Assembly (NCBI GenBank): GCA_947651825.1
Contig: CANTAQ010000001.1
Span: 20,598-84,597 of the forward strand
From: an uncultured Clostridium sp.
GTDB taxonomy: Bacteria; Bacillota; Clostridia; TANB77; CAG-508
Direction of reading: 5' to 3'
Length of the DNA: 64,000 nt
A program made the translations under genes and the position numbers. Each line of letters opens with the position of its first letter. Positions within the stretch are counted from its first letter, which is position 1. Of the stretch, positions 27,237-42,674 are shown one piece after another. The notes below the pieces were generated by a model that had not been told where the DNA came from, did not search any database, and saw only the letters and a program-made list of their open reading frames with translations.

Positions 27237-27256
27237 AAATAGAAATCAAATTATAG

Positions 27257-27297: not shown

Positions 27298-27300
27298 GCA

Positions 27301-27420
27301 AATCAAAGATGATTATAAATCTGCATTGATAGATTTATCTATCAGTGTAGCGAGCATAGGTTTTGTATAGCACACAAAACCGACAACTATTGCTGAAAGG
27401 GGTTTTGCACCCCTATAACC
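27301..27420. promoter_or_regulatory. Putative oriT / nic region: three consecutive hairpins between tnpV-like and mobC-like genes
   Basis: IRs TGATAGAT-T-TATCTATCA, GGTTTTGT-ATAGCAC-ACAAAACC, and AGGGG-TTTTGCAC-CCCCT. The position, immediately upstream of MobC and the relaxase, is typical of an oriT. Confidence 0.35.
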
Positions 27421-27453
27421 CCAACTAAAAAATGAAAGGAAGTGTAAAAAATT

Positions 27454-27777
27454 TTGAAAGAAAAAGTAGTACAAATATGTATAAGAGTTAGTAAAAATGA
27501 AAAGAAAAAATTACAGCAAAAAGCAAAAAAATGTAACTTATCTTTATCAAATTATTTAAGGAAAACAGGACTAAAACAAAAAATTTATCCAATACCAGAT
27601 AAAGAATTTTATCAAATTTATTTACAAGTATGTCAATTAAAAAATGACATTTTAAAAATAGATATAGAACAAATAGAAGAATGTTTAGAGATAATAGAAC
27701 ACAATTTTTTAGTGATTTATAATTCAAAAAGTAATGGAGATGATGACGATGGCGACAACAAAAATATGGTCAGTTAA
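27454..27777 (+). CDS. MobC-like relaxosome accessory protein (ribbon-helix-helix), TTG start
   Basis: IRVSKNEKKKLQQKAKKCNLSLSNYLRKTGL matches the MobC/RHH mobilisation-protein signature. It ends in an acidic tail. Confidence 0.6.
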   Translation: MKEKVVQICIRVSKNEKKKLQQKAKKCNLSLSNYLRKTGLKQKIYPIPDKEFYQIYLQVCQLKNDILKIDIEQIEECLEIIEHNFLVIYNSKSNGDDDDGDNKNMVS

Positions 27778-29119
27778 AGACAGCTTATCACGAGTAGTTA
27801 ATTATGCAAGTAACCCAGAAAAAACGATATTTTCTAATCTAAAACAAGTATTATTATATGCAGAAAATAATGAGAAAACAGTTAATGAAAAAGAAAAAAT
27901 AATGTATGTAACAGGAGTAAATTGTAAAGCCGAAACAGCCTATGAAGAAATGAAAATGACACAAGAAAAGTTTGGAAAATGCACAGGAAATATCGCATAT
28001 CACGCATATCAAAGTTTTAAAACTGGCGAAGTTTCTCCAGAACTTGCACACGAAATTGGAGTAAAACTTGCAAGGAAAATGTGGGCAGAACACCAAGTAT
28101 TAGTTGCAACACATTTCAATACAGGCACATATCATAATCATTTTGTAGTGTGCACTGTTAATATGTTTACAGGGAAAAAGTTTAATTGCAACAAAGGAGC
28201 GTATTATCGTTTTAGAGGTTTATCAGATGAATTATGTAATGAAAATAATTTAACAGTAATTAAGAATCCAAAAGGAAGAACACCAAGAAATATATATTTT
28301 GCAGAAAAAAGGGGAGAACCAACAAAGTATAATCTAATGAGAAAAGCAATAGATGAAACACTAGAAATGTGTGTAAGCTATGCACAATTTAAGAAAGCAA
28401 TGTATAAAAAAGGTTATATCATAAATGATGACCAAAATCGAAAATATGCTACTATTCGTTCAATAAATGATAAAAAAGCAACAAGAATGTACCAATTAGG
28501 AGAAAAATATACACCTAAAAATATTGCAGATAGAGTGTTTAATAACCCTTATTATTTGCAAGAACAGTATTATAAATTTATAAAACCTAGAAAGATATAC
28601 AAGAAAAACAAAGTATGTATGCTTAATGGGAAATTCAAAGATATAAGTAAAATTACAGGGCTTGAAGCTCTTTTTTTATTGCTTTATCACTTATTAGGAC
28701 TAATACCAAAAGAAAATACTAGAAAGCCATTATCTCCAGAAATGAAACAAGAAGTAAGGAAAATGCAAAGATATTCTAACGAGATAAGACTAATAGCAAA
28801 AGAGAAACTACAAACAACAGATGATGTAAAAAGCTATATTTCACAGAATGAAAAGAACATTGCAGAAGTAACTGGAATAAGGCAAAAATACAGAAACAAA
28901 TTAAGAAATTGCAAAGATGATGAGTTAATAAAAGAATATAAAACCAAAAGGGATGAATGCACTACAATTCTAAAAGATTATAGAAATAGCTTAAAAGTTG
29001 CAAATCAAATCGTTGAAGATAACCCAAAAATCAAAGAAGTAATAAGAATAGAAAGACAAGCAAGAAATGAAGAATTGCAACAAACAAAAACAAAATATAA
29101 AAATAGGGAAGTGAGATAA
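27749..29119 (+). CDS. Relaxase / mobilisation nuclease (MobA/VirD2-type)
   Basis: It starts MATTKIWSVK. The 3-His metal motif is HFNTGTYHNHFVV (HxDxxHxH-like). The C-terminal half is long and alpha-helical. GGAG sits 9 nt before ATG 27749. Confidence 0.7.
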   Translation: MATTKIWSVKDSLSRVVNYASNPEKTIFSNLKQVLLYAENNEKTVNEKEKIMYVTGVNCKAETAYEEMKMTQEKFGKCTGNIAYHAYQSFKTGEVSPELAHEIGVKLARKMWAEHQVLVATHFNTGTYHNHFVVCTVNMFTGKKFNCNKGAYYRFRGLSDELCNENNLTVIKNPKGRTPRNIYFAEKRGEPTKYNLMRKAIDETLEMCVSYAQFKKAMYKKGYIINDDQNRKYATIRSINDKKATRMYQLGEKYTPKNIADRVFNNPYYLQEQYYKFIKPRKIYKKNKVCMLNGKFKDISKITGLEALFLLLYHLLGLIPKENTRKPLSPEMKQEVRKMQRYSNEIRLIAKEKLQTTDDVKSYISQNEKNIAEVTGIRQKYRNKLRNCKDDELIKEYKTKRDECTTILKDYRNSLKVANQIVEDNPKIKEVIRIERQARNEELQQTKTKYKNREVR

Positions 29120-29120
29120 A

Positions 29121-29945
29121 ATGAGTGAAAAAATTGTAAATATAAAGGAATTACACGAATTTAAAGATAACCCATACCAAGTAAAAGATAATGAGGATAT
29201 GAAAGATTTAATTGAAAGTATAAAAGAATACGGAGTTATAGAGCCGTTAATAGTAAGGAATAGAGAAAAAGGAGGATATGAAATAGTGAGTGGGCATAGA
29301 AGAAAATATGCGTGTGAAAAAGCAGGAAAAATCGAAATTCCTGTTTTAGTTCGTGATATGGATAAAGATATGGCAATAATTACTCTTGTAGATAGTAACC
29401 TACAAAGAAGTGATATATTACCAAGTGAAAAAGCCTTTGCTTATAAAATGAAATTAGAGGCAGAGAAAAGTCAAAGCAAAAAAAGTTATGGACACAATGT
29501 CCACAAGTCCAGAGATAAAATTGCAGATGGAATAAGTGGTAGGCAAGTACAAAGATATGTAAGATTAACAGAACTTATAAAACCACTATTACAATTAGTT
29601 GATGAAAATAAAATGGCAATGAACCCAGCAGTAGAAATATCATATTTAAAAGAACAGGAACAAAAGGACTTATTAGAAACAATAGAAAGCGAAGATTGCA
29701 CACCCTCATATTCACAAGCAATAAGAATGAAAGAGTTAAGCAAACAAAATAAACTAGATATGGATGCAATTTTCAATATAATGATAGAACAAAAACCAAA
29801 TCAAAAGGAACAGATAAGGTTTAAAGTAGAAAAATTAAAAAGTTATTTTCCAAAGGGTTATAGTACAAAACAAATGGAAGATGTTATAGAAAAATTGTTA
29901 AAACAATATAAACAAAAATGGAAGAATAAAGATTTAGAAAGGTAG
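29121..29945 (+). CDS. ParB-like nuclease/partition domain protein
   Basis: The ParB N-terminal box is IEPLIVRNREKGGYEIVSGHRRKYA. Confidence 0.65.
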   Translation: MSEKIVNIKELHEFKDNPYQVKDNEDMKDLIESIKEYGVIEPLIVRNREKGGYEIVSGHRRKYACEKAGKIEIPVLVRDMDKDMAIITLVDSNLQRSDILPSEKAFAYKMKLEAEKSQSKKSYGHNVHKSRDKIADGISGRQVQRYVRLTELIKPLLQLVDENKMAMNPAVEISYLKEQEQKDLLETIESEDCTPSYSQAIRMKELSKQNKLDMDAIFNIMIEQKPNQKEQIRFKVEKLKSYFPKGYSTKQMEDVIEKLLKQYKQKWKNKDLER

Positions 29946-29988
29946 AGAGAAAACAGAAACAATGAAATGAAAAAGGCTAACAAATAAG

Positions 29989-30237
29989 TTAGTCTTTATT
30001 ACTTTCTTGTTCAGCAGTATCAAATGTTGTGTCAGTAAAAAATTCGCCTAATGTAATTTCAAAACCCTCGCATATATGCAATAGTGTATCAAGTTTTAGC
30101 AGTTCTGTTTTACCACTCATAAAAGTAGATATAGTAGAGCAAGGAATACCAGTAGCTTTGCATAAATCCCATATTTTCATATCTTTTTGTTTTAAATAAT
30201 ATTTTATTCGTTTTCTAATTGCATTTGATAATTTCAT
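29989..30237 (-). CDS. XRE-family helix-turn-helix transcriptional regulator (82 aa)
   Basis: The HTH is IWDLCKATGIPCSTISTFMSGKTEL. It is divergent from the downstream + genes. Confidence 0.7.
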   Translation of the reverse strand: MKLSNAIRKRIKYYLKQKDMKIWDLCKATGIPCSTISTFMSGKTELLKLDTLLHICEGFEITLGEFFTDTTFDTAEQESNKD

Positions 30238-30308
30238 ATAATTTACACCCCTTTATAGTTTGTACTAAAAAATTAATAAAATTATATAAAAATACGAGTT
30301 GACACCAC

Positions 30309-30351
30309 TTTGGTAAATTGAAAAAATATAAAAAAATTTCAATTTACCAAA
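30309..30351. promoter_or_regulatory. Perfect 15-bp inverted repeat TTTGGTAAATTGAAA-N13-TTTCAATTTACCAAA in the divergent promoter region (candidate XRE operator)
   Basis: Seen directly. A TTGACA -35-like hexamer lies just upstream. A third half-site-like copy CAATGTACCAAAC lies downstream. Confidence 0.4.
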
Positions 30352-30423
30352 CTATATCGTTGAATTGAAAAAATAGTTATGATAATATTACTTCAATGTA
30401 CCAAACTATAAAAGGAGGAAATT

Positions 30424-31038
30424 ATGGAAGATTTATATGAAAATAAAATACTTGACGATTTATATGAAATAAGGGAGGGATTTATTACAAGTTATAAAAA
30501 GAAATACGGAGAACTAGAAGAAACAAAGAAAGCAGAACAGGCTGAAGATGAGTTAGTAAACTTTATGAAAAAATTTATTAAAGATGAAAACACTATGAAA
30601 GAATTATTTGAGAAAATAAATAAATTTGAAGGGTATGCATTAGATGAAATGTGTTTTTGGCATAAACCATATTATAAATTAGGATTTATAGATGGAATGA
30701 GATTAAAAAAAGAAATAAGAGAAGGAAAAATAATAGAAAACACATCAAATGATAGTATTATCTTACAAAATATAAATGAAATATCAGATTATTTTGAAGA
30801 ACAAAAATACAGAAATTTAAAAAAGAATAAAGAATACGATAAAATTAGACACAAAATTGAAGAAATAAAAAATAAGTATCCTAGAGTAAGAGAATTTTTT
30901 GAAGATGACAAAATAGAACAACTTACTAAAAAAGAAATGAAAGCAATTTTAGATATAACAGAATTACAAAATGATAGGGCTATGTATGAGGCAGACGAAA
31001 TGCTAAAAATAGGATTGCGAGAAGGAAAGGCATTGTAG
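30424..31038 (+). CDS. Hypothetical protein (204 aa), first copy of a tandem duplicate
   Basis: RBS AAGGAGG. The C-terminal block KIRHKIEEIKNKYPRVREFFED...KIGLREGKAL is repeated in the next gene. Confidence 0.5.
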   Translation: MEDLYENKILDDLYEIREGFITSYKKKYGELEETKKAEQAEDELVNFMKKFIKDENTMKELFEKINKFEGYALDEMCFWHKPYYKLGFIDGMRLKKEIREGKIIENTSNDSIILQNINEISDYFEEQKYRNLKKNKEYDKIRHKIEEIKNKYPRVREFFEDDKIEQLTKKEMKAILDITELQNDRAMYEADEMLKIGLREGKAL

Positions 31039-31039
31039 G

Positions 31040-31519
31040 GTGGAGAAAATGGAAAAAAGAGAATATAAAGTAAATGAAATATTTGAAAATCAAATTTTGA
31101 ATGAAATATACGAAACAAGAGGAGATGGACTAGAATGCTTTTATATAAGAATGTATGGAGAGCCAGAAGAAATAAAGGAAACAAAAACAAGATTTTTCAA
31201 AAATAAAGAAAACAAGAAGATACAATAAAATAGCTTTTTCTACCTATACATAGATAGTATTATGCAATTTTTAGAAGATAATAGATATAATATTTGGCAA
31301 AAAAGAAAAGATTACAAGCAAATAAAAGATAAAATGAGAGAAATAAAAAATAAATATGCTAATGTTAGGCTATTTATTGAAGATAGAGTAGTAACAGCAA
31401 ATTTAACAAAAGAAGAATTGAAAGCTGTTCTTGAATATATCAATTTAGATGATGAGATAGAAAGAATAGAGAAAATAGAAACTTTTAAATTGGGATTAAA
31501 AGAGGGCAATTGGCTATAA
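31040..31519 (+). pseudogene. Degenerate tandem duplicate of the preceding gene, split into two ORFs (31040-31228 and 31262-31519)
   Basis: ILNEIYETRGD...EEIKETK matches the N-terminus of the upstream gene. IKDKMREIKNKYANVRLFIED...FKLGLKEGNWL matches its C-terminus. A stop followed by a 33-nt gap interrupts the copy. Confidence 0.35.
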
Positions 31520-31618
31520 GAGGTAGAAATATCTCTTGTTTTTTATATGTATTGTTTTTATAATGAAAAACTGATATAATTATCCCAACAGATAGTAAGT
31601 TGTAGAGGAGATTATAAA

Positions 31619-32296
31619 TTGGATATAGAAGTAAATAATATAAAAATTCATTATGAAGTTATTGGAAATGGCAAACCGATAATTTTACTAAATCCTAATA
31701 GTGTTAATACTGGATTGATGAAATTTATTGCGAACAAATTAAAAGATAAATATAAAGTATATATTTTTGATAGAAGATGTTGTGGTAAAAGTGAAAAGAA
31801 TTGCGATTTAACCTATGAAGAATCAGCGAAAGATGTTGCAGAATTTATAAAAAAATTAAATATTGATAAACCATATTTACTAGGATGTAGTGGTGGAGGA
31901 ACTGTTGCTCTTAATGTTGCAATTCATTATCCAACAAGTATATCTAAGTTAATTCTCTGTAGTGGAGTTGCAAGAAATAATATTATTAAAAAACCGAATT
32001 ATGCAAAATTTATGGAAAGATTACCATATTATCCTGGAAAAAAGAGCAACGAAAAATTTGAAAAATTACTTAATGAATCTAAAACCATAACAAAGGAAGA
32101 ATTAAATTCTATTATTGTTCCTACATTAGTTTTTAATGGTGGTATTAAAGATTTAGTTCCAAAAAATGAGGTTGAATATATTTCAAACAATATTAAAAAG
32201 TCAGAAATGTTTATATTAGAAAAAGCAGGACATTGTAATTATATTTTCAATAATGATGACTTTTATAACAAGTTAAATAATTTTTTAGAAGAATAA
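31619..32296 (+). CDS. Alpha/beta-hydrolase fold protein (TTG start)
   Basis: The nucleophile elbow is GCSGGG, and the topology is alpha/beta. GAGGAG sits 8 nt before the TTG. Confidence 0.7.
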   Translation: MDIEVNNIKIHYEVIGNGKPIILLNPNSVNTGLMKFIANKLKDKYKVYIFDRRCCGKSEKNCDLTYEESAKDVAEFIKKLNIDKPYLLGCSGGGTVALNVAIHYPTSISKLILCSGVARNNIIKKPNYAKFMERLPYYPGKKSNEKFEKLLNESKTITKEELNSIIVPTLVFNGGIKDLVPKNEVEYISNNIKKSEMFILEKAGHCNYIFNNDDFYNKLNNFLEE

Positions 32297-32327
32297 AAAA
32301 TTACAATATATAGAGGAGGTACGCAAA

Positions 32328-32489
32328 TTGAAAAAAGAAAAATGGTTAATAATTATTGGAAATATTTTATTATTTATTACTTGCATACTTCAAGTAATAG
32401 TAAAATTAAGCAGTGAAGTTTATGTTACTTTAATTACTATATCAGTTTTACTAGAATTAATTGGAATTGCATTAGGTAAAGAAGAATAA
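32328..32489 (+). CDS. Small membrane protein (53 aa, TTG start)
   Basis: GGAGG sits 8 nt before the TTG. It translates KKEKWLIIIGNILLFITCILQVIVKLSSEVYVTLITISVLLELIGIALGKEE. Confidence 0.35.
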   Translation: MKKEKWLIIIGNILLFITCILQVIVKLSSEVYVTLITISVLLELIGIALGKEE

Positions 32490-32513
32490 AATTACAATTT
32501 GAAAGGAATGGAA

Positions 32514-33119
32514 ATGATACTACTATTAAAATATGGAAATACAAATTGTTATTATATAAAAGGTAAAAATGGTAGTATATTAGTAGATACAGACTGGGCA
32601 GGAACACTACAAGCCTTTTATAGAAAAATGAAAGAATTAAATATTGAAAAAATTGATTATCTTTTAATAACACATTACCACCCAGACCACATAGGAATAG
32701 CACAAGATATAATTGATATGGGAACAAAACTATTATTAGTAGATGTTCAAAAAGATTATATTCATAGTTCAGACACAATTTTGCAAAAAGATAAAAATAT
32801 TCAGTTTAAGCCTATAAATACAGAGCCTGTAATTATATCGTGTGAGCAAAGTAGAGAGTTTTTAAATGATTTAGGAATAGATGGAGAAATAATATATACA
32901 CCAGGACATAGTGAAGATAGTATTTCTCTAATTTTAGATAATGGTAGTGTTTTTGTAGGAGATTTATACGATTTAAAATCTGCAATAACATTTAATGATG
33001 AAAAGATAAATAATAGTTGGAATAAAATATTAAGCCATAATATATCAAAAATATACTATGGTCATCACGAACAAACTATTAGCAATATAAAAAAGATAGA
33101 AGATACACTAATCAATTAG
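32514..33119 (+). CDS. MBL-fold metallo-hydrolase
   Basis: LITHYHPDHIG (HxHxDH), and a later GHSEDS. Confidence 0.7.
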   Translation: MILLLKYGNTNCYYIKGKNGSILVDTDWAGTLQAFYRKMKELNIEKIDYLLITHYHPDHIGIAQDIIDMGTKLLLVDVQKDYIHSSDTILQKDKNIQFKPINTEPVIISCEQSREFLNDLGIDGEIIYTPGHSEDSISLILDNGSVFVGDLYDLKSAITFNDEKINNSWNKILSHNISKIYYGHHEQTISNIKKIEDTLIN

Positions 33120-33203
33120 TGCTAGAAATTACAAGTTTGTAGTTTGAAAGATTTATAGTAATTTATTGCTAGAGTTGTAATAATATGAAAGGAAGAATGT
33201 AAA

Positions 33204-33998
33204 ATGAACGAATCTAATGTTAGAAATATAAATTTTCATAGTGATATACTTAATAAAGATATGGGAATAAATGTGTATTTGCCAAAAGGATATGAAGAAA
33301 ATAATAATCCACTACCAGTATTATATTTTCTTCACGGAAGAAGTGGGAATGAAAATATTATATTTGATTTGAATATGAAAGGAATAGCAGATGAAATGAT
33401 AGAAAGTGGGAAAATAAAACCACTAATAATTGTTTGCCCTAGAATTGAAAATAGTAGAGGGGTAAATTCATCTTCTATAAGTAATGAAGTATTAAGTCCA
33501 GGAGATAGTGGAATTATTATAAATGTTGGAATGTATGAAGATTATTTTATAAAGGAAGTTGTACCTTTAATTGATAATATATTTAATACAATAAAGACAA
33601 AAAATGGTAGATATATTGGTGGTGTTTCAGCAGGTGGATATGCAGCACTTCATAATTCATTTAGACATCAAGAAATGTTTGGCAAAGTTGGAGGACATAT
33701 GCCTGCAATAGAACTAACTTTAGAGAAAGAAGATACTCCATATTTTAAGGATATATCTGTGTGGGAAAAATACGATCCTATAACGATTGCTAAAAATAAT
33801 GAAATTTCAAAGGAACTTAAAGTTTATCTTGATGCAGGAAATCAAGATGAAGGACATTTTTATGAAGGATGTAAAGTTTTGCAGGATATATTAGAAAAGA
33901 AACAAGTAACATCTCAAAACCACATTTATGATGGACATCATAATGGAGCATATATAATATCTAATTTAGAAAAATATTTAGAATTTTATAATTCATAA
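33204..33998 (+). CDS. Putative esterase (esterase D / enterochelin-esterase-like alpha/beta hydrolase)
   Basis: LYFLHGRSGNE, and GGVSAGGYAAL (GxSxG). Confidence 0.65.
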   Translation: MNESNVRNINFHSDILNKDMGINVYLPKGYEENNNPLPVLYFLHGRSGNENIIFDLNMKGIADEMIESGKIKPLIIVCPRIENSRGVNSSSISNEVLSPGDSGIIINVGMYEDYFIKEVVPLIDNIFNTIKTKNGRYIGGVSAGGYAALHNSFRHQEMFGKVGGHMPAIELTLEKEDTPYFKDISVWEKYDPITIAKNNEISKELKVYLDAGNQDEGHFYEGCKVLQDILEKKQVTSQNHIYDGHHNGAYIISNLEKYLEFYNS

Positions 33999-34025
33999 AT
34001 TACAAGTTGAAAGTTAGGTGTATTT

Positions 34026-34475
34026 ATGGAATATGACAAATTAGAATTTGAAACAACTTTTAAGAATGGGGATATGATTCCAGTAGAATATACTGGGTAT
34101 GGAAAAAATATATCTCCAGAATTTAGAATTAAAAATTTATCAGATAAAGCAAAAAGTTTAGTAATAATTTTAGAAGATTTAAGTCATCCGATAAAGAACT
34201 TTACTCATTGGATTGCGTGGAATATAAAGGCAAATTCTGTAATTCCAGAAAATGTTGGAAATATGGATAATGTTATGCAAGGAATTGCCTATGGATTTCA
34301 TAAATATGCAGGAGCAAAACCACCAATGTTTCAAAAACACAATTATAAATATACAATATATTCATTAGATAACACTTTAGAATTGTCATCTAATATTATG
34401 AAAAAGAAACTTTTGAAAGCAATGAATGGGCATATTTTACAAAAGGGAACTATTATAGGTTATTTTAAAAGATAA
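34026..34475 (+). CDS. YbhB/YbcL (PEBP/RKIP) family protein
   Basis: The PEBP signature is ILEDLSHPIKNFTHWIAWNI (D.D.P...HW..NI). Confidence 0.7.
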   Translation: MEYDKLEFETTFKNGDMIPVEYTGYGKNISPEFRIKNLSDKAKSLVIILEDLSHPIKNFTHWIAWNIKANSVIPENVGNMDNVMQGIAYGFHKYAGAKPPMFQKHNYKYTIYSLDNTLELSSNIMKKKLLKAMNGHILQKGTIIGYFKR

Positions 34476-34588
34476 ATTACAATATATAGGGCAGGTAATT
34501 GAATTTATCTGTCTTTTATTATATAATCGTAGCAGAAGATAGTAAATTTATCGTTAAGATTAAAATTTATTGTGGGGAGATGTATCGT

Positions 34589-35440
34589 ATGAAAAAGAAA
34601 ATAGGTATTAGTATAGGAATATTGGTAATTGTACTTATAGTTGCAGGGATTATTACAAATTATTCAGATAGTGCTAGAGTAACAACAGGACACGAGCCAA
34701 AGTGTTGCATAAAGGTAGTTAGCAATGATGGAAGTAAAGTAACTTATTGGGGATTAGGTTATAAAGTAGTTCGTTATGTTGGAGTATCTCCAAACGAGCC
34801 TTATGAAAGCAATATTGGTGTAAAAATGGGAAATTGGTTTATGAAATATGAATTACCAAAAGCTGATATTATTGAAATTGAATATGAAGGACAAATAATT
34901 ACTATTACAGATATAAAAGATATAGGAATTATAGAAAATATATTATTAAATTCAAAATATAATGGAGAAATATGCAATGGAATAAATACTCACAAAATAA
35001 TATTAAATAAGGATATTTATTATATTAAAGAATCTTGCAAAGAAATACAAAAAGGAGATAAACAAGCGACAATTTCAACAGAAGATTTAGAAACAATCAA
35101 TAATATTATTTTTCAAAATAAAACTAATGAAATAAAAAGTATAGCAGAAAGCTATACTTTTACAAAAACATATAATGTAGTAAATGTAGCTGACAGTAAT
35201 GATGAAAATTACTTATACTTAACAATTAGGCAATTTCAAGATGAAAAAGTAAAAACGGTCAAAGTACAAAGAAGTTTAGCAAATACTGTTGAAAAAGAAA
35301 ATAATTATGAGTTTACTTTTCAATATACAAATAATATCCCTGAAGATAACATAGAATCAATATTTGCAAATACTATGCTTATTGCAATAAAGAAAACAGA
35401 TAAACAAGGATTAGAGCAAGTTCAAGATTCAATTAGATAA
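34589..35440 (+). CDS. Hypothetical membrane-anchored/secreted protein
   Basis: GGGGAG sits 9 nt before the ATG. N-terminal anchor KKKIGISIGILVIVLIVAGIIT. No motif recognised. Confidence 0.5.
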   Translation: MKKKIGISIGILVIVLIVAGIITNYSDSARVTTGHEPKCCIKVVSNDGSKVTYWGLGYKVVRYVGVSPNEPYESNIGVKMGNWFMKYELPKADIIEIEYEGQIITITDIKDIGIIENILLNSKYNGEICNGINTHKIILNKDIYYIKESCKEIQKGDKQATISTEDLETINNIIFQNKTNEIKSIAESYTFTKTYNVVNVADSNDENYLYLTIRQFQDEKVKTVKVQRSLANTVEKENNYEFTFQYTNNIPEDNIESIFANTMLIAIKKTDKQGLEQVQDSIR

Positions 35441-35482
35441 TCATCTCGAAAAATTACAATATATAAAGGAGGAAAAATAATA

Positions 35483-35626
35483 ATGGATAAGAAAAAAATG
35501 ATGAACTGGATAATAGCAATAATAGTTGCTATCGTGTATTTAACAGTAAGTATTATATTTAAGTCTTGGGCATATTCTTGGCTTATATGGGTTGCGTACG
35601 CAACTTATAGATTTATTGTTAAATAA
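35483..35626 (+). CDS. Small membrane protein (47 aa)
   Basis: Strong RBS AAAGGAGG. It translates MDKKKMMNWIIAIIVAIVYLTVSIIFKSWAYSWLIWVAYATYRFIVK. Confidence 0.35.
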   Translation: MDKKKMMNWIIAIIVAIVYLTVSIIFKSWAYSWLIWVAYATYRFIVK

Positions 35627-35657
35627 CTAAATTACAATTTGAAAGTGAGATGAAGTA

Positions 35658-36134
35658 ATGAATATTCACTTTGGATTTTCATATATAGGGTTCATATTTT
35701 TGTTAATGCTAATGATACCTAATATTATATGGAGTAAAAATCAACCTAAAGACTATGATAAATATGTTAAAAATGAGAATAAAGTATTATTATTATTTGA
35801 AAGAATTGGAGAAATGCTAGTAACTTGTATATCATTGATATTTATTGATTTCAATATAAATAAAATTTCAAATTGGTCTATTATCTTGTTAATTGCATTT
35901 ATTCTAATGATTTTATATGAAATATATTGGATAAGATATTTCAAAAGTAATAGAACAATGAAAGATATGTATAGTAGTTTATTAGGAATACCTGTTGCAG
36001 GAGCAACTTTGCCAATATTTGCATTTCTGTTATTAGGTATATATGGTAAAAATGTATTTTTAATTATTGCAACAATTATATTAGGAATTGGACATATTGG
36101 AATACACTTAAATCATAGAAAAGAAGTTAGATAA
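35658..36134 (+). CDS. Hypothetical 4-TM membrane protein
   Basis: Four hydrophobic helices; RBS GTGAGATGAAG. Confidence 0.5.
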   Translation: MNIHFGFSYIGFIFLLMLMIPNIIWSKNQPKDYDKYVKNENKVLLLFERIGEMLVTCISLIFIDFNINKISNWSIILLIAFILMILYEIYWIRYFKSNRTMKDMYSSLLGIPVAGATLPIFAFLLLGIYGKNVFLIIATIILGIGHIGIHLNHRKEVR

Positions 36135-36162
36135 ATTATAAGTTTTTAAGGAGAACAAAAAT

Positions 36163-36669
36163 ATGGATATATCAATTAGAAAATGGAAAATAGAAGATGC
36201 AGAAGAATTAAAAAATGCAATAAACAATGAAAAAATTTTAGATAATTTACGAGATGGAATACCATATCCATATACAATAGAAAATGCACAAGAATTTATC
36301 ACACAAACTTTAAATGCTCCTAAAGATAGTCAATATTCTTGGGCGATACTAGTAGATAATAAAGTGATTGGAAGTGTTGGTGTATTTAGAAAAGATAATA
36401 TTCATTATCAAACAGCAGAAATCGGCTATTATATAGCCGAAGAATATTGGGGAAATGGTATTATGACAAAAGTTATAACAGAAGTATGTAATTATATATT
36501 TAATGAAACTGATATAATTAGAATATTTGCAGAGCCATTTGCTTATAATGTAGCTTCCTGTAAAGTTTTGGAAAAAGCAGGGTTTGAATTAGAAGGCATA
36601 TTAAGAAATAATGCAATTAAGAATAATAAAATATTAGATATGAAAATGTATTCTATTATTAAAAAGTAA
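36163..36669 (+). CDS. GNAT family N-acetyltransferase (RimJ/RimL-like)
   Basis: The acetyl-CoA binding region is IGYYIAEEYWGNGIMTKV. Confidence 0.75.
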   Translation: MDISIRKWKIEDAEELKNAINNEKILDNLRDGIPYPYTIENAQEFITQTLNAPKDSQYSWAILVDNKVIGSVGVFRKDNIHYQTAEIGYYIAEEYWGNGIMTKVITEVCNYIFNETDIIRIFAEPFAYNVASCKVLEKAGFELEGILRNNAIKNNKILDMKMYSIIKK

Positions 36670-36750
36670 ACGCAAAATTACAATTTTTTAAAATAATTAC
36701 TTGACTATGCCATTACAGGTTAGCTTACAATTATAACAGAGGTGGTTATA

Positions 36751-37623
36751 ATGTTAATAAATGAAGTTGCAAAATTGTGTAATTTAACTAAAAAAGCAGT
36801 TGAATATTATACAGAACAAAAACTAATATGTCCTAGTATCCTAGAAAATGGATATAGAGATTTTTCAAAGAAAGATGTAGAAATTTTAAAGCAAATTGCT
36901 TTATATAGAAGATTAGGATTAAGTATATCTGAAATTAAAAGTATTCTTGCTAATCCAGATGAATTAAAAAGTATTTTATATAAGAAAACTCTTGAATTAG
37001 AGCAAGAAAAAGCAAAACAGGATATTTTACAAAAGTTATGCAATGGAGAAAGTTTAGAAAAATTAGAACAAGAAATAAATAATATAAATTCTAAAACAAT
37101 TATCATTAAAAAGTTGATGGATTTATTTCCTAGTTATTATGGAAAATTTATAAGTTTGAATTTTTCTAGGTATCTTACAGGAAGAATTGAAACAAAGGAA
37201 CAATTGGAAGCATTTAAAGAAATTATTGATTTTTTTGATAATGTACCTAATATTAAAATACCAAAAGACTTACAAGAATATTTAGATGAGTATTTAGAAG
37301 AATATTCAAGTGAAAAAGGTCAAAAAATAATAAATAGTATTATTCAATCAAAGGATAAAAATATAAGAAATATAGATGAGTTTGTAAGAAAAAATAAGGA
37401 ATCACTAGACAAATATAATGAATATAAGAAAACAGAAGAATTTAAAAATTCACCTGCTAATAGATTAATGGAACTAATGAAACAAGTTTGTGCTACAAAT
37501 GGATATTATGAAAAGTTTATACCTGCAATGAGAAAGTTAAGTCCATTATATAATGAATATTATGAGGAAATGTTAAAAGCAAATGAACAATTTATTAAAA
37601 ATTATCCTGAATATACAGAATAA
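36751..37623 (+). CDS. MerR-family transcriptional regulator with a long helical C-terminal domain
   Basis: The N-terminal MerR HTH is MLINEVAKLCNLTKKAVEYY...GYRDFSKKDVEILKQIALYRRLGLSISEI. TTGACT-N19-TACAAT lies upstream. Confidence 0.7.
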   Translation: MLINEVAKLCNLTKKAVEYYTEQKLICPSILENGYRDFSKKDVEILKQIALYRRLGLSISEIKSILANPDELKSILYKKTLELEQEKAKQDILQKLCNGESLEKLEQEINNINSKTIIIKKLMDLFPSYYGKFISLNFSRYLTGRIETKEQLEAFKEIIDFFDNVPNIKIPKDLQEYLDEYLEEYSSEKGQKIINSIIQSKDKNIRNIDEFVRKNKESLDKYNEYKKTEEFKNSPANRLMELMKQVCATNGYYEKFIPAMRKLSPLYNEYYEEMLKANEQFIKNYPEYTE

Positions 37624-37662
37624 TATCTATTAAACAAATTACAATTTTGTAAGGAGGTATCT

Positions 37663-38511
37663 ATGAAAAAGAAAGCTATAATTACAATTTCGGTTATGAT
37701 TGCAATATTAGTTTTATGTGGAATATATTTACATTATGAAAACACCAAATTACAAGTAAGTAATTATAATATAATCAATCATAATATACCTGTTGATTTT
37801 AATAACTATAAAATAGTGCAAATATCAGACTTTCACAATAATAAATCTAATGCTTTAACTAATGATTTAATAAAAGAAATAGAAAAACAAAAACCGAACA
37901 TTATTGTTTTGACAGGAGATTTAATTGATTCAAATAAAATAGATATAGAAGTTGCTACAGATTTTATTAAAAATATAAACAATATTGCACCTATTTACTT
38001 TATTTCTGGCAATCATGAATCCAATATTAGTAGTTATCCAGAACTTAAAGAACAACTAGAAAAAAATAGGGTTATTGTTTTAGATAATAAAACTGAAGTG
38101 TTAAAAATAAATGAATCAAAGATAAACTTAATAGGTATAGATGATCCACGAATGGCTCACGAAAATTTTGTATCAGATTCTGAAATAATAAAAGTTGAGT
38201 TAGATAATGCAAAATACAATGAAAATAAATATAGTATATTGCTATCTCACAGACCAGAATTGTTTGATACTTATGCAGAAAAGGAATTAGACTTAATTTT
38301 AGTAGGACATGCACATGGAGGGCAAATAAGAATACCATTTATAGGTGGAATTGTTGCTCCAAATCAAGGATTTTTTCCTAAATATACAAGTGGAATATTT
38401 GAAGAAAATAAAACAACAATGGTAGTAAGTAGGGGGATTGGGAATAGTATTTTGCCTTTTAGAATAAATAATAGACCAGAATTAGTAATTGTAACATTAA
38501 ATAATAAGTAA
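37663..38511 (+). CDS. Calcineurin-like metallophosphoesterase (YkuE-like) with an N-terminal anchor
   Basis: The motifs are QISDFHNN, LTGDLID, GNHE, and GHAHGGQ. Confidence 0.75.
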   Translation: MKKKAIITISVMIAILVLCGIYLHYENTKLQVSNYNIINHNIPVDFNNYKIVQISDFHNNKSNALTNDLIKEIEKQKPNIIVLTGDLIDSNKIDIEVATDFIKNINNIAPIYFISGNHESNISSYPELKEQLEKNRVIVLDNKTEVLKINESKINLIGIDDPRMAHENFVSDSEIIKVELDNAKYNENKYSILLSHRPELFDTYAEKELDLILVGHAHGGQIRIPFIGGIVAPNQGFFPKYTSGIFEENKTTMVVSRGIGNSILPFRINNRPELVIVTLNNK

Positions 38512-38662
38512 CACAAAATTACAATCTATTGATAGATTTCCAAAAATGTTAGGTTTAAGTGTCAATATTCCAGTATGAAATGGTAGAAATAAGTGCGATA
38601 AAATTCTACAATAATAATAGATATTGGTTAATATCAAATTATGTAGAAAGGAAGATGTAACA

Positions 38663-39037
38663 ATGAAATTTAACGAAAAACTAATTAAGTTAAGGAAGGC
38701 AGCAGGGTTATCTCAAGAAGAACTAGGAAACAGACTAGATGTAGCAAGGCAAACTGTTTCAAAGTGGGAACTCGGAGAAACAACACCAGAAATGGATAAA
38801 TTAGTAGAATTATCTAATTTATTCAATGTTAGTATGGATGAAATGGCAAAGGAAACAGAAATACCAGAAGTAATTGCAAGAGAATTAGACCATAAAAAAA
38901 TTGATTCAGTTTATAATGATGTTGGAACAGCAAAAAAAATCATAAAACATTATATAATAATTTTCGGAACAATAGCAATTATAATAGCAATAATACTGAT
39001 AAATTACTTTGTTAGAACAGCCTTTCATTTATGGTAA
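38663..39037 (+). CDS. XRE-family HTH regulator with a C-terminal transmembrane helix
   Basis: The HTH is LRKAAGLSQEELGNRLDVARQTVSKWE. The C-terminal TM is IIIFGTIAIIIAIILI. Confidence 0.65.
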   Translation: MKFNEKLIKLRKAAGLSQEELGNRLDVARQTVSKWELGETTPEMDKLVELSNLFNVSMDEMAKETEIPEVIARELDHKKIDSVYNDVGTAKKIIKHYIIIFGTIAIIIAIILINYFVRTAFHLW

Positions 39038-39061
39038 TTCAATAATTTAAGTAAAATTGTA

Positions 39062-39084
39062 AGGGAGTAAATTTACTCCCTTTT
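39062..39084 (+). terminator. Rho-independent terminator at the end of the gene array
   Basis: Perfect palindrome GGGAGTAAATTTACTCCC, followed by TTTT. Confidence 0.6.
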
Positions 39085-39209
39085 CAATTACCATAAATGC
39101 AGGTAAGAAGTTGAAAATTATTATCATTTTGTGTTATAATCATCTCGAGAAATTACAAGTTATAGAGAGGATTATCATAAATATTATATAAAAAATGAAA
39201 TATAACAAA

Positions 39210-39246
39210 AAGAGATATTAAAAACAAGTTAGTATCTCTTTTTTGT
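39210..39246 (+). terminator. Second rho-independent terminator
   Basis: AAGAGATA-N15-TATCTCTT, followed by TTTT. Confidence 0.5.
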
Positions 39247-39270
39247 GTCTAATTATATTTTAAATCTAAA

Positions 39271-39540
39271 TTTTCATTAAAAATTTTTTTAAAAATGTCC
39301 CATTTTTCATTTCTCAATCGCTGTTATAGATAAGAGAGAAAATCTCATATATAAAAACTTCAAAAAAAAATAAAATTTTTTCAAAAAAAGGTCAAGTTTT
39401 TGATTTTTCAATCGCTGTTATAAGTAGGAGATTTAAAATCACATATACAAAAAATAAAATTTTTTTGAAAAAAACATAACCTTTTTAACTTTTCAAACGC
39501 TGTTATATATGAGAGGGAAAATCTCGAAAAATTAAAGAAC
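39271..39540. repeat. Three tandem copies (about 90-bp period) of a composite unit, [A/T-tract palindrome] + [~57-bp conserved block TTTTCAATCGCTGTTATA..GAG..AAAATC.CATATA.AAAAA]; iteron-like
   Basis: Conserved blocks lie at 39303-39357, 39398-39454 and 39481-39537. The A/T palindromes (AAAAATTTTTTTAAAAA and similar) precede each block. Confidence 0.6.
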
Positions 39541-39870
39541 ATTGAAAATTGAATAGCAATTCATTAGATACAGTCCTTTGATTACTTGAGCTAGTAATAA
39601 AATCTATTACTTAAATATTAGCTTGCAACTAATAAGGCGAAGATAAGTGTAAGAGGAAAGAAACTTTTGTATAGTCATAGAACGAGCGTTAAAAGCGTCC
39701 CACGCAATGAGTACAAGCCTGTAAACAGGTAGGTGAAAATCCTATGAGATGTAAGCAAAACATCTGTCTAATGAATTATTGGAAAAGGTATAAAGAGAAA
39801 ATATACCAATAACTACCAAAGAAAATTGAATGGTAGTGTTTTTATCAATCACTTAAAGGAGATGGTAACA

Positions 39871-40035
39871 TTGATTGAGAAAGTTTTAACAAATAACAGT
39901 GAAAAAGTAGATAAAAAATTACTCCAATATACACTACAATTAAGAGCATTAAATCATTTAAAAAATAATAATAAAATAGATGAAATAGTATATAAATCAA
40001 CAAAAGCTAAAATAAATAAAAATTCACACATTTGA
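39871..40035 (+). CDS. Small K/N-rich protein (54 aa, TTG start) directly upstream of the large serine recombinase; candidate recombination-directionality/accessory factor
   Basis: GGAG sits 9 nt before the TTG. The longer ORF-track version starts at 39826. It loosely resembles the small ORF at 50256, which occupies the equivalent position. Confidence 0.3.
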   Translation: MIEKVLTNNSEKVDKKLLQYTLQLRALNHLKNNNKIDEIVYKSTKAKINKNSHI

Positions 40036-40093
40036 AAATAAGAAGATAAAAATATAATGTGTTAGTGGTTAAAAATTGGAAAAGGAGGTATGA

Positions 40094-41905
40094 ATGAATG
40101 TAACTTTAATAAAAAAAGTCGATGGACGAATAAATCGTACAACTGGTTTAAAGGTTACAACAGGATTAAGAGTAACAGCATATTGTAGAGTAAGTACAGA
40201 TGATGAAGACCAAAAAAACAGTTATGAATCGCAAAAAGCATATTACAAAGAAAAAATAACCTCTAATCCAGAATGGAGGTATATAGAAATTTATGCAGAT
40301 GAGGCAATTTCTGGTACATTAGACTATAAAAGAAATGACTTTATGAAAATGATACAGGACGCTTTAGATGATAAATTTGATATGATAATGACAAAGTCAA
40401 TATCAAGATTTGCAAGAAATACAGTAGACACACTAAAATATGTAAGAATGTTAAAAGAGCATAATGTAGCTGTATTTTTTGAAGAAGAAGGAATAAATAC
40501 ATTAGAAATGTCAGGAGAATTACTATTAACAATATTAAGTTCAGTAGCACAACAAGAAAGCGAAAATACATCTACACACGTAAAATTAGGACTAAAAATG
40601 AAAAAGGAACGAGGAGAACTAATTGGCTTTGGTGGTTGTTTAGGTTATACTTATAATCCAGAAGATAACACTTTAACTATAAATGAACAAGAGGCAGAAA
40701 TTGTTAGACTAATTTATGAAAAATATTTAGAGGGATTTGGAGCAGAAAGTATATCAAGACAATTAACTAAACTGGGAATAAAAACACCAAAGGGAAAAGC
40801 TGTATGGTGCGAAACAACAGTAAGAAAAATACTAAAAAATGAAAAATACAAAGGAGATGTACTACAAGGAAAAACATTTACAATAGACCCAATTAGTCAT
40901 AAAAGATTATCTAATATGGGAGAGGAAGATAAGTATTATATTTCTAATCATCACGAGGCAATAATAGACGAAGAAACATTTGAAAAAGTACAACAAATAA
41001 TGAAAGAAAGAAACGGAGGCAGGTCAGCAAGTAGGAAAGTTGGAAATGTAGGAAGAAAATACCCAATGAGTAATAGAATTAGATGTGGATTTTGTGGAAG
41101 TACCTTTACAAGAAGAAGTCTATATACAACAGCAAATCCAAAACCTGCTTGGCTATGTCAAACAGCAAGTAAACTAGGAAAAGAGTTTTGTAATAAATGT
41201 AAAATAATGAGAGCAGATGTATTAGAAAAGTCATTTGTAGACGCATATAAACTACTATGTAATGATAACAAATTATTAGTAGACAATTTCCTAAATAATA
41301 TATCAAGTCTAATGAAAAGCAATTCTCCAAAAGATAATATAAAGAAACTAGAAACACAAAAAGAAGAATTAAAAAATAAATGCAATAAGTTATTAGACTA
41401 TATGCTAGATGGTACAATTACAAAAGATATTTATACAGAAAAGAAAGATGAGTGTTTATTAAAAATAAAAGAAGTAGACACTAAAATAATGGAAATTCAA
41501 GCAAATATGGAAGATGACGACAGCATAGAAAGAGGCATAAAGAAATTAAAAAAAGTTTTTGACACTAACGCTATTATGGAAGAATTTGATATAGATGTCT
41601 TTGACACACTTGTTGACTATATTATTGTTGGAGGGTATAATGAAAGTGGCAGAGCAGACCCATATATGTTAAGATTTATTGTAAAAACTCATTCAAATAT
41701 GTTTAAGAAAGAAAAAGATGTTTCAAAAGAGCATATAGTGGAACGAAACAAATTAACACAAGATTATAGAAATATAGTGTTATTAGATTTTATAGACCAA
41801 CAAAATTTTATAGCTTACGATAGAGATAAAGACGGAAATTTTAAGAAAAAAGTAATAAAAAAGGTTAGAGTTAGGGTAGAATGTGATATGAGTAATGAAA
41901 ATTAG
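40094..41905 (+). CDS. Large serine recombinase (SpoIVCA/CisA-like), intact
   Basis: The resolvase domain is LRVTAYCRVSTDDEDQ...SISRFARN. Then come the recombinase domain, a zinc ribbon (CGFCGSTFTRR...C..C) and a coiled coil. RBS AAAGGAGG. Confidence 0.85.
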   Translation: MNVTLIKKVDGRINRTTGLKVTTGLRVTAYCRVSTDDEDQKNSYESQKAYYKEKITSNPEWRYIEIYADEAISGTLDYKRNDFMKMIQDALDDKFDMIMTKSISRFARNTVDTLKYVRMLKEHNVAVFFEEEGINTLEMSGELLLTILSSVAQQESENTSTHVKLGLKMKKERGELIGFGGCLGYTYNPEDNTLTINEQEAEIVRLIYEKYLEGFGAESISRQLTKLGIKTPKGKAVWCETTVRKILKNEKYKGDVLQGKTFTIDPISHKRLSNMGEEDKYYISNHHEAIIDEETFEKVQQIMKERNGGRSASRKVGNVGRKYPMSNRIRCGFCGSTFTRRSLYTTANPKPAWLCQTASKLGKEFCNKCKIMRADVLEKSFVDAYKLLCNDNKLLVDNFLNNISSLMKSNSPKDNIKKLETQKEELKNKCNKLLDYMLDGTITKDIYTEKKDECLLKIKEVDTKIMEIQANMEDDDSIERGIKKLKKVFDTNAIMEEFDIDVFDTLVDYIIVGGYNESGRADPYMLRFIVKTHSNMFKKEKDVSKEHIVERNKLTQDYRNIVLLDFIDQQNFIAYDRDKDGNFKKKVIKKVRVRVECDMSNEN

Positions 41906-41954
41906 TAACCTTACAACAACACTTACTCCATATTAAGACTACCTTACACTCAGA

Positions 41955-41984
41955 CCCACACCACACATGTGGAGTGTGTGGCAG
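41955..41984. other. GC-rich imperfect palindrome CCCACACCACACATGTGGAGTGTGTGGCAG 50 bp past the recombinase stop; candidate att core
   Basis: 7-bp arms CCACACA/TGTGTGG around CATGTGGAG. A related sequence, CCATGTGGAATGCGTGG, lies at the 3' end of the second recombinase gene (52274-52290). Confidence 0.35.
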
Positions 41985-42674
41985 TGCTACAACTAAAGCA
42001 AGACATGTAATACTTGATTTTGATATGGTTTCAGAGATTATAACTTTTGAAGAAAAAGGCAGATTTGGGAAAGAAAAACATCAAAATTTGAGTGTGAAAG
42101 TTAAAGTGGTTGCTTAAGTGGTAAGTGGAAACACATAAATGAAATTTTAGAAAATGGAGCAAAGTGTTTAAAATACTGGAAAAATTGCGATTGTATCTAC
42201 TGTAAGCATAACAGGTATAGGTTGTGTTGGTTAGTAGATATGAAACAAAGTTAGATGTTTCAACTATTAGAAAGAATTTATTAAAAGGAGTTATAGAGAA
42301 TCTTTATTAAATGGGTGTCAGTAGAGATATGTGCTGATACTTATTTTTTATAGGACGAAAATTTAATAAAATTCGGCTTATAAAAATTCATAGGACGAAA
42401 AAGTTAAAAAATTCGTCCTATAACATTTGCATACCAATTTTAATCTCCAATAAAAATAATATCAAGAGTAAAATAAACTCACTTCGTTCGCTCTTGACAT
42501 TATTTCCATTGGAGATTTTGTGGCAATTAAGCAAATGTAAGGATAAATATGTTTTGCAAATATTGGTAAAACACTATTAAAAATTGTTAATTTGTGATAT
42601 ATTATCTGTAGTTTTAAAGACATATTGAACTATTATAATTTTAGAAATAATTTTGAAAAGAGGAAATATATAAT

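Follow-up and report, generated by a model that had tools for sequence, protein, structure and literature searches.

The stretch of DNA analysed here (64,000 nt, referred to as the window) comes from an uncultured Clostridium sp. of the mouse gut (assembly GCA_947651825.1, contig CANTAQ010000001.1) and contains, between about 31.6 and 39.2 kb, an array of twelve small, functionally unrelated genes whose linkers share a short conserved motif, AAATTACAA. As claimed in a first-pass annotation made from the sequence, this motif links consecutive genes on the + strand, with 11 exact copies (starting at 32298, 32489, 33126, 33997, 34474, 35451, 35629, 36675, 37636, 38516 and 39150) and one variant with a single mismatch, AAATTATAA, at the junction between the genes for a 158-aa protein and a GNAT acetyltransferase (36133–36141). 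The linker copies are located 0–15 nt 3' of a stop codon and 15–140 nt 5' of the next start codon; of the 12 exact + strand copies between 32298 and 39158, the remaining one (37747) is intragenic, within the metallophosphoesterase gene. The two flavours of the motif, the longer 21-mer shared by two copies (35441 and 39131) and a last copy followed by no gene were likewise all present. In the whole window AAATTACAA occurs 19 times against 6.2 expected, a number reached in none of 100 shuffles, and for the extended 12-mer AAATTACAAKTT the count is 8 where 0.29 would be expected. Outside the array, no intergenic copy was found among the roughly 50 other genes of the window, all such copies being intragenic; the linkers of the approximately 25 genes downstream of the array do not use the motif, and two chromosomal loci of the same organism (L071 and L073 in our numbering of loci) contain zero copies. 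Across 71 loci, 318 copies are on the array (+) strand and 20 on the opposite strand. The site is thus confined to arrays, and because it is absent from other intergenic DNA and from the chromosomal loci, a generic ribosome-binding-site (RBS) leader, which the first-pass annotation had named as the alternative, was rejected.

All features of the array are on the + strand. It starts at a platform consisting of an extended −10 promoter (TGATATAAT, 31572–31580, read from the sequence, with the same box in many backbones) and a start-type site of a second class, B (ATAGTAAGTT, 31592–31601), at which the first cassette joins the platform, as indicated by differing first cassettes and by breakpoints at this position; the sites between cassettes belong to class A (AAATTACAA) unless stated otherwise. 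Cassette 1 (31602–32297; gene 31619–32296) encodes an alpha/beta hydrolase, the same unit following RhuM in L001, and is followed by A site 1 (32298–32306). Cassette 2 (32307–32488), found after ICMT in L006 and after PEBP in L037, encodes a 53-aa membrane peptide (32328–32489) and its TAA stop overlaps A site 2 (32489–32497). Cassette 3 (32498–33125) codes for an MBL-fold hydrolase (32514–33119) and ends at a composite junction (33126–33164) made up of an A site (33126–33134), a 20-nt adaptor, GTTTGTAGTTTGAAAGATTT, and a B site, ATAGTAATTT (33155–33164). Then come cassette 4 (33165–33996), an esterase (33204–33998) whose stop codon overlaps A site 4 (33997–34005), and cassette 5 (34006–34473), a PEBP/YbhB protein (34026–34475), for which 38 instances with 13 different left and 19 different right neighbours were recorded. 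The region behind PEBP (34474–34588) contains A site 5 (34474–34482), a hairpin (34488–34515), a −10 box (34522–34527) and a B-like site (34539–34548), and here a new transcription unit is predicted to start. Cassette 6 (34589–35450) encodes a 283-aa protein without assigned family (34589–35440; called as a gene in L001 and L021) and is separated by A site 6 (35451–35459), with TAATCATCTCGAA in front, from cassette 7 (35460–35628), a 47-aa membrane peptide (35483–35626) directly followed in L013 and L019 by the module of the large serine recombinase (LSR) described below. A site 7 (35629–35637), cassette 8 (35638–36132; a 158-aa membrane protein, 35658–36134), A site 8 (the variant AAATTATAA, which overlaps the stop codon), cassette 9 (36142–36674; the GNAT acetyltransferase, 36163–36669) and A site 9 (36675–36683) lead to cassette 10 (36684–37635), which encodes a MerR-family regulator (36751–37623) and has a predicted promoter of its own (TTGACT-N19-TACAAT, about 36702–36735). 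A site 10 (37636–37644) precedes cassette 11 (37645–38515), a metallophosphoesterase (37663–38511) found after an HTH_19 cassette in L008, and A site 11 (38516–38524) precedes cassette 12 (38525–39149), an XRE regulator (38663, end 39037) with its own promoter region, an inverted repeat (39045–39098) and a predicted outward promoter (TTGAAA-N18-TGTTATAAT, 39111–39140). The terminal A site (AAATTACAAGTT, 39150–39161) forms the boundary with the LSR module, coinciding with the left identity limit in L011, L013, L016 and L018; the segment 39132–39158 reads as −10 box, leader and site (TGTTATAAT-CATCTCGAG-AAATTACAA). The gene families named at first sight were borne out by Pfam on the identical array in L021 (Abhydrolase_1, Lactamase_B, Esterase, PBP, Acetyltransf_3, MerR_1, Metallophos and HTH_3), where the 53-, 283-, 47- and 158-aa proteins had no match.

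The content of the array varies between loci by whole cassettes. Loci were gathered via three anchor proteins: PEBP, an 85-aa open reading frame (ORF) of the carrier backbone and the LSR. The exact 149-aa PEBP protein was present in 712 assembly blocks, and in ten loci (L001–L010) its neighbours differ on both sides. Proteins 74–100% identical to it were found in 42 loci from approximately 40 metagenome-assembled genomes (MAGs), on contigs representing one genome per species, and are almost always flanked by the motif on both sides; Lachnospiraceae homologues with 56–57% identity lie in loci of 10–20 kb with 0–1 motif copies each. The MAGs carrying PEBP are labelled Clostridia, Clostridiaceae, Erysipelotrichales, Bacilli and Tenericutes, so that the Clostridium setting assumed by the first-pass annotation holds for only part of the system. 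The 90%-identity cluster to which this PEBP belongs has a further member assigned to the cultured species Thomasclavelia cocleata (WP_288060782.1, on 657 contigs). Elements whose backbones are 98–100% identical (L019–L028, collected via the 85-aa protein) carry at least four different arrays, and the content between the mobilisation module and the LSR differs by whole site-bounded units; the identical gene order in related strains that would have spoken against cassettes was not found. Similarly, the identical LSR module is preceded by four different cassettes, with the left limit of identity exactly at 39150. Breakpoints were mapped by all-against-all megablast of the 71 loci, which yielded 1187 distinct internal alignment ends. 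Relative to the motif, alignment starts cluster at offsets 0 to −8 and alignment ends at +8 to +13; 40.9% of alignment ends lie within 10 nt of an exact site (random positions, 0.9%), 11.4% near a one-mismatch copy (random, 3.7%) and 9.1% near ATAGT[AG]A, the B site (random, 1.4%). Cutting the loci at the sites gave 306 cassette instances, which group into 144 families and form 152 distinct adjacencies. In three pairs of arrays the difference is a precise indel of one to three units bounded by sites (0-[12]-30, 0-[28-82]-12 and 0-[53-3-54]-28). Cassettes therefore vary as units across elements and species, with breakpoints on the site, and these site-bounded differences support the reading of the locus as an integron-like cassette array, which had been proposed from the window sequence and was essentially right. 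Inversion switching between the two site classes was considered and rejected, as only one inverted alignment was present among the 71 loci.

A logo of 136 unique junctions showed no conservation to the left of the motif, K-T-T at positions 10–12 and, in 69% of cassettes, a Shine-Dalgarno G at position 21 from the motif. The full site thus reads AAATT-AC-AAKTT, a near-palindrome of the form 5+2+5 whose asymmetric centre confers polarity on the 12 bp. Each unit is laid out as 5'-AAKTT, 5–10 nt, a Shine-Dalgarno sequence, one ORF, a stop codon, 0–15 nt and AAATTAC-3', and adjoining units thus have the 12-bp AAATT-AC-AAKTT in common. The packing is tight. Of 93 single-ORF families, 70 have their stop codon no more than 20 nt from the next site, with TAA overlapping the site in 26; the start codon mostly follows the site at a distance of 15–24 nt, and the coding fraction has a median of 0.85. 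Sequence variants of the site segregate by side. Variants at positions 1–3 (TAATTACAA, AACTTACAA and AATTTACAA) stay linked to the upstream unit where the downstream neighbour changes, and variants at positions 8–9 (AAATTACCA, AAATTACAG and AAATTACAC) travel with the downstream unit when the upstream unit differs. Hairpins were not found at the 3' ends of 69 non-redundant cassettes (folding energy −2.24 kcal/mol compared to −1.67 kcal/mol for shuffled sequences, p = 0.18). Two peculiar forms of the site were observed. A 7-nt tandem duplication, TAATTAC-AAATTAC-AA, follows a hexapeptide-transferase cassette in L011 (1859–1874) and L044 (11346–11361), and elsewhere the same cassette has a single site without the duplication. 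The variant AACTTACAA (L011 8680–8702; L206 5845–5870; L049 9960; L043 11493) is preceded by AGCGAC, AGCAAC or CTCGAC, the reverse complement of the start of B-type leaders (GTAAGTT-GTCGCT); such flanks match what an inversion-type exchange of a B site with an A site would produce, the left gene, however, not being inverted.

First cassettes are preceded not by AAATTACAA but by the class B site ATAGTAAKTT, which is located 11–15 nt 3' of the extended −10 box and differs from class A in the three central bases only (AGT instead of TAC). This platform of −10 box and B site is present in unrelated backbones, and different first cassettes follow the ATAGTAA of an identical platform in L019, L021, L024 and L028. 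A given cassette family holds one class of left site, both classes occurring only in PEBP (L039), suggesting that the central bases of partner sites must match; such a need is a property common to tyrosine and serine recombinases. Where a B-type cassette is internal, as at 33126–33164 in the window, an A site and the conserved 20-nt adaptor stand in front of its B site. In fact, the esterase unit begins at ATAGTAATTT in seven different left contexts and is preceded by the adaptor when inside an array. L005 has the order promoter–B–esterase–A–PEBP–A–adaptor–B–VanZ and the window the order promoter–B–hydrolase–A–53-aa peptide–A–MBL–A–adaptor–B–esterase, which are the arrangements predicted if a multi-cassette circle had been inserted at a B site. 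The junction at 34474–34548, with its terminator hairpin, −10 box and B-like site, has homologous modules in L002, L011 and L052. The earlier proposal of a single promoter upstream of the array did not hold: an internal terminator and −10 box follow PEBP, the MerR and XRE cassettes have promoters of their own, and at least three of the 12 window cassettes have predicted promoters, so that the array consists of several transcription units. Transcripts are predicted to start at about 31587, 34534, 36742 and 39147 and to read through the A sites.

The array is carried by a 16-kb integrative mobilisable element (IME; approximately 25.80–41.98 kb) inserted in the 3' end of rumA, which encodes a TRAM-domain 23S rRNA methyltransferase. 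Its left end is an attL core, CACACGTGGA (25794–25803, + strand), inside the rumA 3' end, which was located by comparing attL and attR with the empty site in L073. The backbone (26853–31519, + strand; Pfam) encodes TnpV, a NikA-like MobC, a PF03432 relaxase, a ParB_N protein, an HTH protein on the − strand and a DUF6664 protein, as well as a 59/62-aa ORF and the 85-aa ORF. To the right of the array, the LSR module (39162–41956, + strand) comprises three 82-nt repeats (39276–39536), a small ORF (approximately 39865–40035) and the gene of a 603-aa LSR (LSR603, 40094–41905), and the element ends at attR (CACACCACACATGTGGAGTGTGTGG, 41957–41985, + strand). Iteron-like repeats had been noted downstream of the array; repeats are indeed present, and they are these three 82-nt copies. 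The att core of LSR603, CACA[CT]GTGGA, lies in the conserved HVE-coding part of rumA, occurs only at the IME ends and not between genes, and bears no likeness to the cassette motif. Insertion of the IME swaps out the rumA 3' end, the displaced end being found just past attR. In L073 and L074, which have the empty site, rumA is directly followed by the 266-aa gene that lies at 52538 in the window, and the window therefore contains two tandem integrative elements in the rumA 3' end. TnpV, mobilisation and relaxase genes, a terminal LSR, att sites and an empty target were thus all found for the carrier. The LSR highlighted near the array is present; it inserts the entire element at rumA and is probably a different enzyme from the one that moves cassettes. 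Its candidacy as cassette integrase was considered unlikely, its att sites mapping to rumA and being unlike the motif. A hidden recombinase function of DUF6664 or ParB_N found no support in family or structure matches, and the region 5' of mobC (27237–27453), considered for a relaxase nic site, contains several inverted repeats and nothing resembling the motif.

Several further features of the two tandem elements were observed. They span approximately 25.8–42.0 and 42.0–52.4 kb, each ending in an LSR gene (the two LSRs are 53% identical), and the LSR ORF of the second (50522–52303) crosses its att site and ends in the original rumA 3' end. Displaced and diverged rumA 3' ends lie after the first attR, with three sequence classes in other loci. 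The first 82-nt repeat contains TTTCTCAATCGCTGTTA (39310–39326), with a similar core in the other two, and this 17-mer is 88% complementary to the RBS and start region (39866–39882) of the small ORF before the LSR gene, a complementarity that may reflect antisense or operator control of LSR expression. At 42560–42625, and also in L012, L014 and L015, a conserved promoter region (…AAAAATTGTTAATTTGTGATATA) is followed by wholly different genes in each locus, and the break falls directly 3' of the −10 box, suggesting another recombination hot spot, one that lacks AAATTACAA; the genes at 42.7–47.8 kb are tightly packed and lack the site. An imperfect palindrome of about 17 nt, GTACACYWAGTGWAC, is present five times in the region 5' of the second LSR gene (49900–50330). 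Beyond the insertion, the chromosome (56147–62318; L073 13610–19923) encodes a run of enzymes (GNAT, MBL-fold, serine hydrolase, FMN reductase, GNAT, radical SAM and HD) that resembles cassette cargo, with no sites between the genes.

The DNA-processing proteins of the IME are the relaxase and the LSR only, and neither has a motif-like site. No tyrosine recombinase was found in the window by tblastn, in line with the lack of a tyrosine integrase reported initially, and tblastn of candidate proteins against all loci revealed no recombinase regularly within 10 kb of arrays. A sibling IME with an identical LSR module (L011), however, encodes a 331-aa XerA-like tyrosine recombinase (L011 4519–5514). 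This protein scores 239.7 bits on the XerA-type model NF040815 of NCBIfam (cut-off 220) and 74.3 bits on the integron integrase model TIGR02249 (cut-off 265), its closest solved relatives are XerA and XerD, and R, K, H-x-x-R, H and Y were recognised at the expected motifs of its translation by eye rather than in a reference alignment. Near-identical proteins are numerous, and the same or a 92–93% identical recombinase was present in at least six contexts, including an ICE (integrative and conjugative element) transfer operon, the chromosome (among others beside spoIIIA) and a promoter–B platform. Its leader, conserved over about 190 nt, starts exactly at a B or A site (…ATAGTAA|KTTGTCGCTGAGATTGAA…), with different partners upstream (cassettes, an IS91-type element, a group II intron, a promoter), and an A or A-like site lies 80–125 nt past its stop codon in two of four variants (the L196 and L202 types, not L011 and L201). 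On this circumstantial evidence the XerA-like protein is the best candidate for the cassette recombinase. In L196 (9330–11190), and also in L195 and L197–L200, a gene cluster resembling those for ribosomally synthesised and post-translationally modified peptides adjoins the XerA-like gene in the same site-bounded unit; it encodes a Cys/Ser-rich precursor (…CSCNCSSGCSACSSSCGSCTSCSTSCS), a radical SAM/SPASM enzyme and a TehB-type methyltransferase.

We favour, with a confidence only a little above even, a model in which the array is cargo of the IME and cassettes are exchanged by site-specific recombination at the short site. Recombination between two direct sites would release the intervening units as a circle carrying one site, and the circle could re-enter any array, be it on an IME, an ICE or a chromosome, through a site of matching class. 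The enzyme would act in trans, its best candidate, and the weakest step of the model, being the 331-aa XerA-like tyrosine recombinase. Passage through circles and the identity of the enzyme are inferred, and a number of points weigh against the model. The action of a recombinase on the site is a prediction, and neither a circular cassette nor an excision junction was observed. The XerA-like gene is not in the window, lies within 10 kb of an array in one of about 60 array loci, and could itself be cargo, because it is formally one more site-bounded unit. Conservation spans 12 bp only, and the core sites of characterised Xer- and Cre-type recombinases, at 28–34 bp, are well above this length. 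Single variants at positions 6 and 7 conflict in their side assignment, so that the crossover is bracketed to positions 3–8 and not mapped more finely. Junctions without a site occur in cargo regions, for example downstream of the recombinase in L202 and L206 and in the second IME (42.6–47.8 kb), and the neighbour counts are biased toward PEBP, 85-aa ORF and LSR units because these anchored the collection of loci.

The same cassette system could instead be driven by a serine recombinase, either one of the LSRs that all carrier IMEs and ICEs encode or a small resolvase-type enzyme, cutting at the central AC of AAATT-AC-AATTT. This fits the architecture of the site, whose sole departure from symmetry is the central AC, with the inverse centre GT in class B, as well as the site-class fidelity of the cassette families, which is expected if the centre bases must match, and a crossover bracket that includes AC. 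The terminal site, moreover, abuts the LSR module, three repeats lie between that site and the LSR gene, and LSRs are found on both IME and ICE (three in L005). We nevertheless consider a serine enzyme unlikely: the att site of LSR603 in rumA does not resemble the motif, a serine recombinase is lacking within 10 kb of many arrays, and the site is invariant even though the carrier LSRs are only about 25% identical to each other. Known serine recombinase half-sites require sequence beyond the extent conserved here, and recombination of A with B would invert DNA, yet inverted cassettes are almost absent. Movement in single-stranded form, with an HUH enzyme (a relaxase or an IS200/IS605-type Y1 transposase) cutting AAATTAC|AA during conjugation, appears very improbable. 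It would account for the strict strand bias and for the conjugative or mobilisable carriers, although arrays occur in chromosomes as well; the crossover placement is most consistent right after TTAC, 3' of which IS608 cleaves, and the 7-nt duplication in L011 and L044 could be counted in its favour. Subterminal hairpins, however, were not found at the cassette ends, the oriT-like region 5' of mobC has no motif-like sequence, the carrier relaxases are only 29–33% identical to each other, and site-class fidelity is unexpected for HUH enzymes. No IS200/IS605 Y1 transposase was present in the annotated loci.

Two explanations dispense with a recombinase. If the motif were an expression element, cassettes could be shuffled by RecA-independent microhomology or template switching, and no dedicated enzyme, which in the recombination model is an inferred one, would be required. 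In about 70% of cassettes the Shine-Dalgarno G indeed occupies a fixed position (21), the start codon follows 15–24 nt after the motif, and the motif lies just 3' of −10 boxes, at predicted transcript 5' ends. We hold this to be quite unlikely, as the motif also occurs with no gene following it (39150) and 5' of terminator hairpins (34474 and others), and is not found in the intergenic DNA of the other window genes or of the chromosomal loci. The exact 9–12-mer at about 100 non-redundant junctions with dissimilar flanks from about 40 species (67–69 non-redundant flanks; 107 unique exact-motif junctions) would be difficult to preserve without a sequence-specific process, and both the concentration of breakpoints on one short site and the segregation of left and right variants indicate a defined crossover. 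The diversity of neighbours might, finally, be mimicked by chimeric metagenome assemblies at repeated cassettes, given that most loci come from short-read assemblies, that cassettes are repeated within samples and that 349 of the 712 PEBP blocks are on contigs shorter than 2 kb. Chimeric joins would be expected within the shared cassettes, whose length exceeds the k-mer, rather than at a 9–12-bp site; the same junctions recur across independent samples and sources, and arrays are found in genomes that represent species and within contigs as long as 1.68 Mb. An assembly artefact is therefore hardly credible.

Other mobile elements have inserted at the cassette sites. An IS110-family element lies within an A site (AAATTACA|GGTATAC … GATAGTCAA|TTTGAAAG) in L002 (10801–12420) and L020 (14168–15800), two arrays in which the cassettes differ on both sides. 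The 5' untranslated region of this element contains CAAATTACAGAGG, as would be expected if its bridge-RNA loop were programmed for the A site. The 5' end of a group II intron, GTGCGCCCAGC, lies right after AAATTACAATT in two arrays with different upstream cassettes (intron positions: L024 7867; L058 13676; L207 1796–1900; L028 2551–3819), and in L207 the 3' end of the intron abuts the leader of the tyrosine recombinase at the B-site position. In integrons, IS1111-attC elements and group IIC-attC introns parallel these insertions. With respect to distribution, megablast of the array (8.4 kb) against the plasmid collection PLSDB and the phage collection INPHARED gave no match, and nothing was found in the window with Rfam at gathering thresholds. 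A metagenome scan for two sites 160–190 nt apart, which tells little about how widely arrays occur, returned mostly tandem repeats among the matches listed and at least one genuine array (L087). The tandem repeats (L103, L112, L129, L157, L187, L191 and others) are long arrays with a period of about 66 or 78 nt containing AAATTACAAKT; they may be CRISPR arrays or satellites and appear to be unrelated to the cassette system.

The cassette system shares several features with integrons: the cassettes are co-oriented, mostly single-ORF and mostly promoterless, functionally unrelated and located 3' of a predicted platform promoter; they are gained, lost and reshuffled as whole units, with a conserved junction as the place of exchange; and arrays are present in chromosomes as well as on mobile elements, often remote from any integrase, as is the case for CALINs (clusters of attC sites lacking integron integrases). 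A putative analogue of the integron platform is TGATATAAT, followed after 11–15 nt by ATAGTAAKTT and then by varying first cassettes, with a predicted promoter and no adjacent integrase gene. Unlike integrons, the system has no IntI (the candidate scores 74 against a cut-off of 265) and no attC sites, which are imperfect palindromes of 55–140 bp that fold as single strands; as the first-pass annotation had recognised, the linkers (24–42 nt, RBS included) are too short for these. Instead, it has a 12-bp near-palindrome of the double-strand type, its cassettes carry their own Shine-Dalgarno sequence, and the conserved part is at the cassette 5' end. The pdif/dif modules of Acinetobacter plasmids are likewise small, have short sites, are shuffled between replicons and presumably depend on a Xer-family enzyme in trans; their sites, however, are 28 bp long, dif-like and of alternating orientation, in contrast to the 12-bp, direct sites (318 versus 20) of an expressed array behind a promoter, and the candidate enzyme here is XerA-like and element-borne rather than host XerC/XerD. 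With staphylococcal cassette chromosome (SCC) and Tn4451-family elements the locus has in common TnpV, a mobilisation module, a terminal LSR, an rRNA methyltransferase target and, as in SCC, a tandem pair, but this likeness concerns the 16-kb carrier and not the single-gene cassettes. SCC has its att core at every junction, whereas the LSR att site here is unrelated to the cassette site, and LSR603 scores 153 bits on the CcrC model (cut-off 900). The R64 shufflon, with Rci and its asymmetric sfx sites, also has a short site conserved in the spacer and on one side only; it inverts segments between inverted sites and thereby switches the 3' end of one gene, whereas the sites of the present arrays are in direct orientation, hardly any inversions occur and what passes between replicons is the entire gene.

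Searches of the literature, full text and the motif itself included, revealed no description of such a system, and there is a substantial chance that this integron-like cassette system is independent and previously unrecognised. The fuller proposal, that the integron principle was invented independently a second time in gut Firmicutes, with 12-bp double-strand sites of two compatibility classes, promoter platforms and a mobile XerA-like recombinase travelling as a cassette, and that the system distributes identical single-gene cassettes over ICEs, IMEs and chromosomes of dozens of species, we put forward as a serious possibility of somewhat less than even probability. If confirmed, a directional 12-bp site with a small recombinase would serve as a tool for genome engineering, and Thomasclavelia cocleata would provide a culturable host for direct testing, provided that its PEBP flanks carry sites. 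Integrons are the textbook system for the capture and expression of single genes. Complete integrons have not been found in Firmicutes (PMC4889954). If true, our reading would mean that gut Firmicutes have a functional counterpart of the integron with a far simpler site, and it would explain the occurrence of 100% identical small genes in many contexts in about 40 mouse-gut species. The cassette pool includes MBL-fold hydrolases, GNATs, an aminoglycoside-resistance-family protein, a double ABC_tran ATPase, MatE, Imm11 and Imm33, families often tied to drug or toxin modification and to immunity, and the system would thus have a bearing on the flow of resistance genes.

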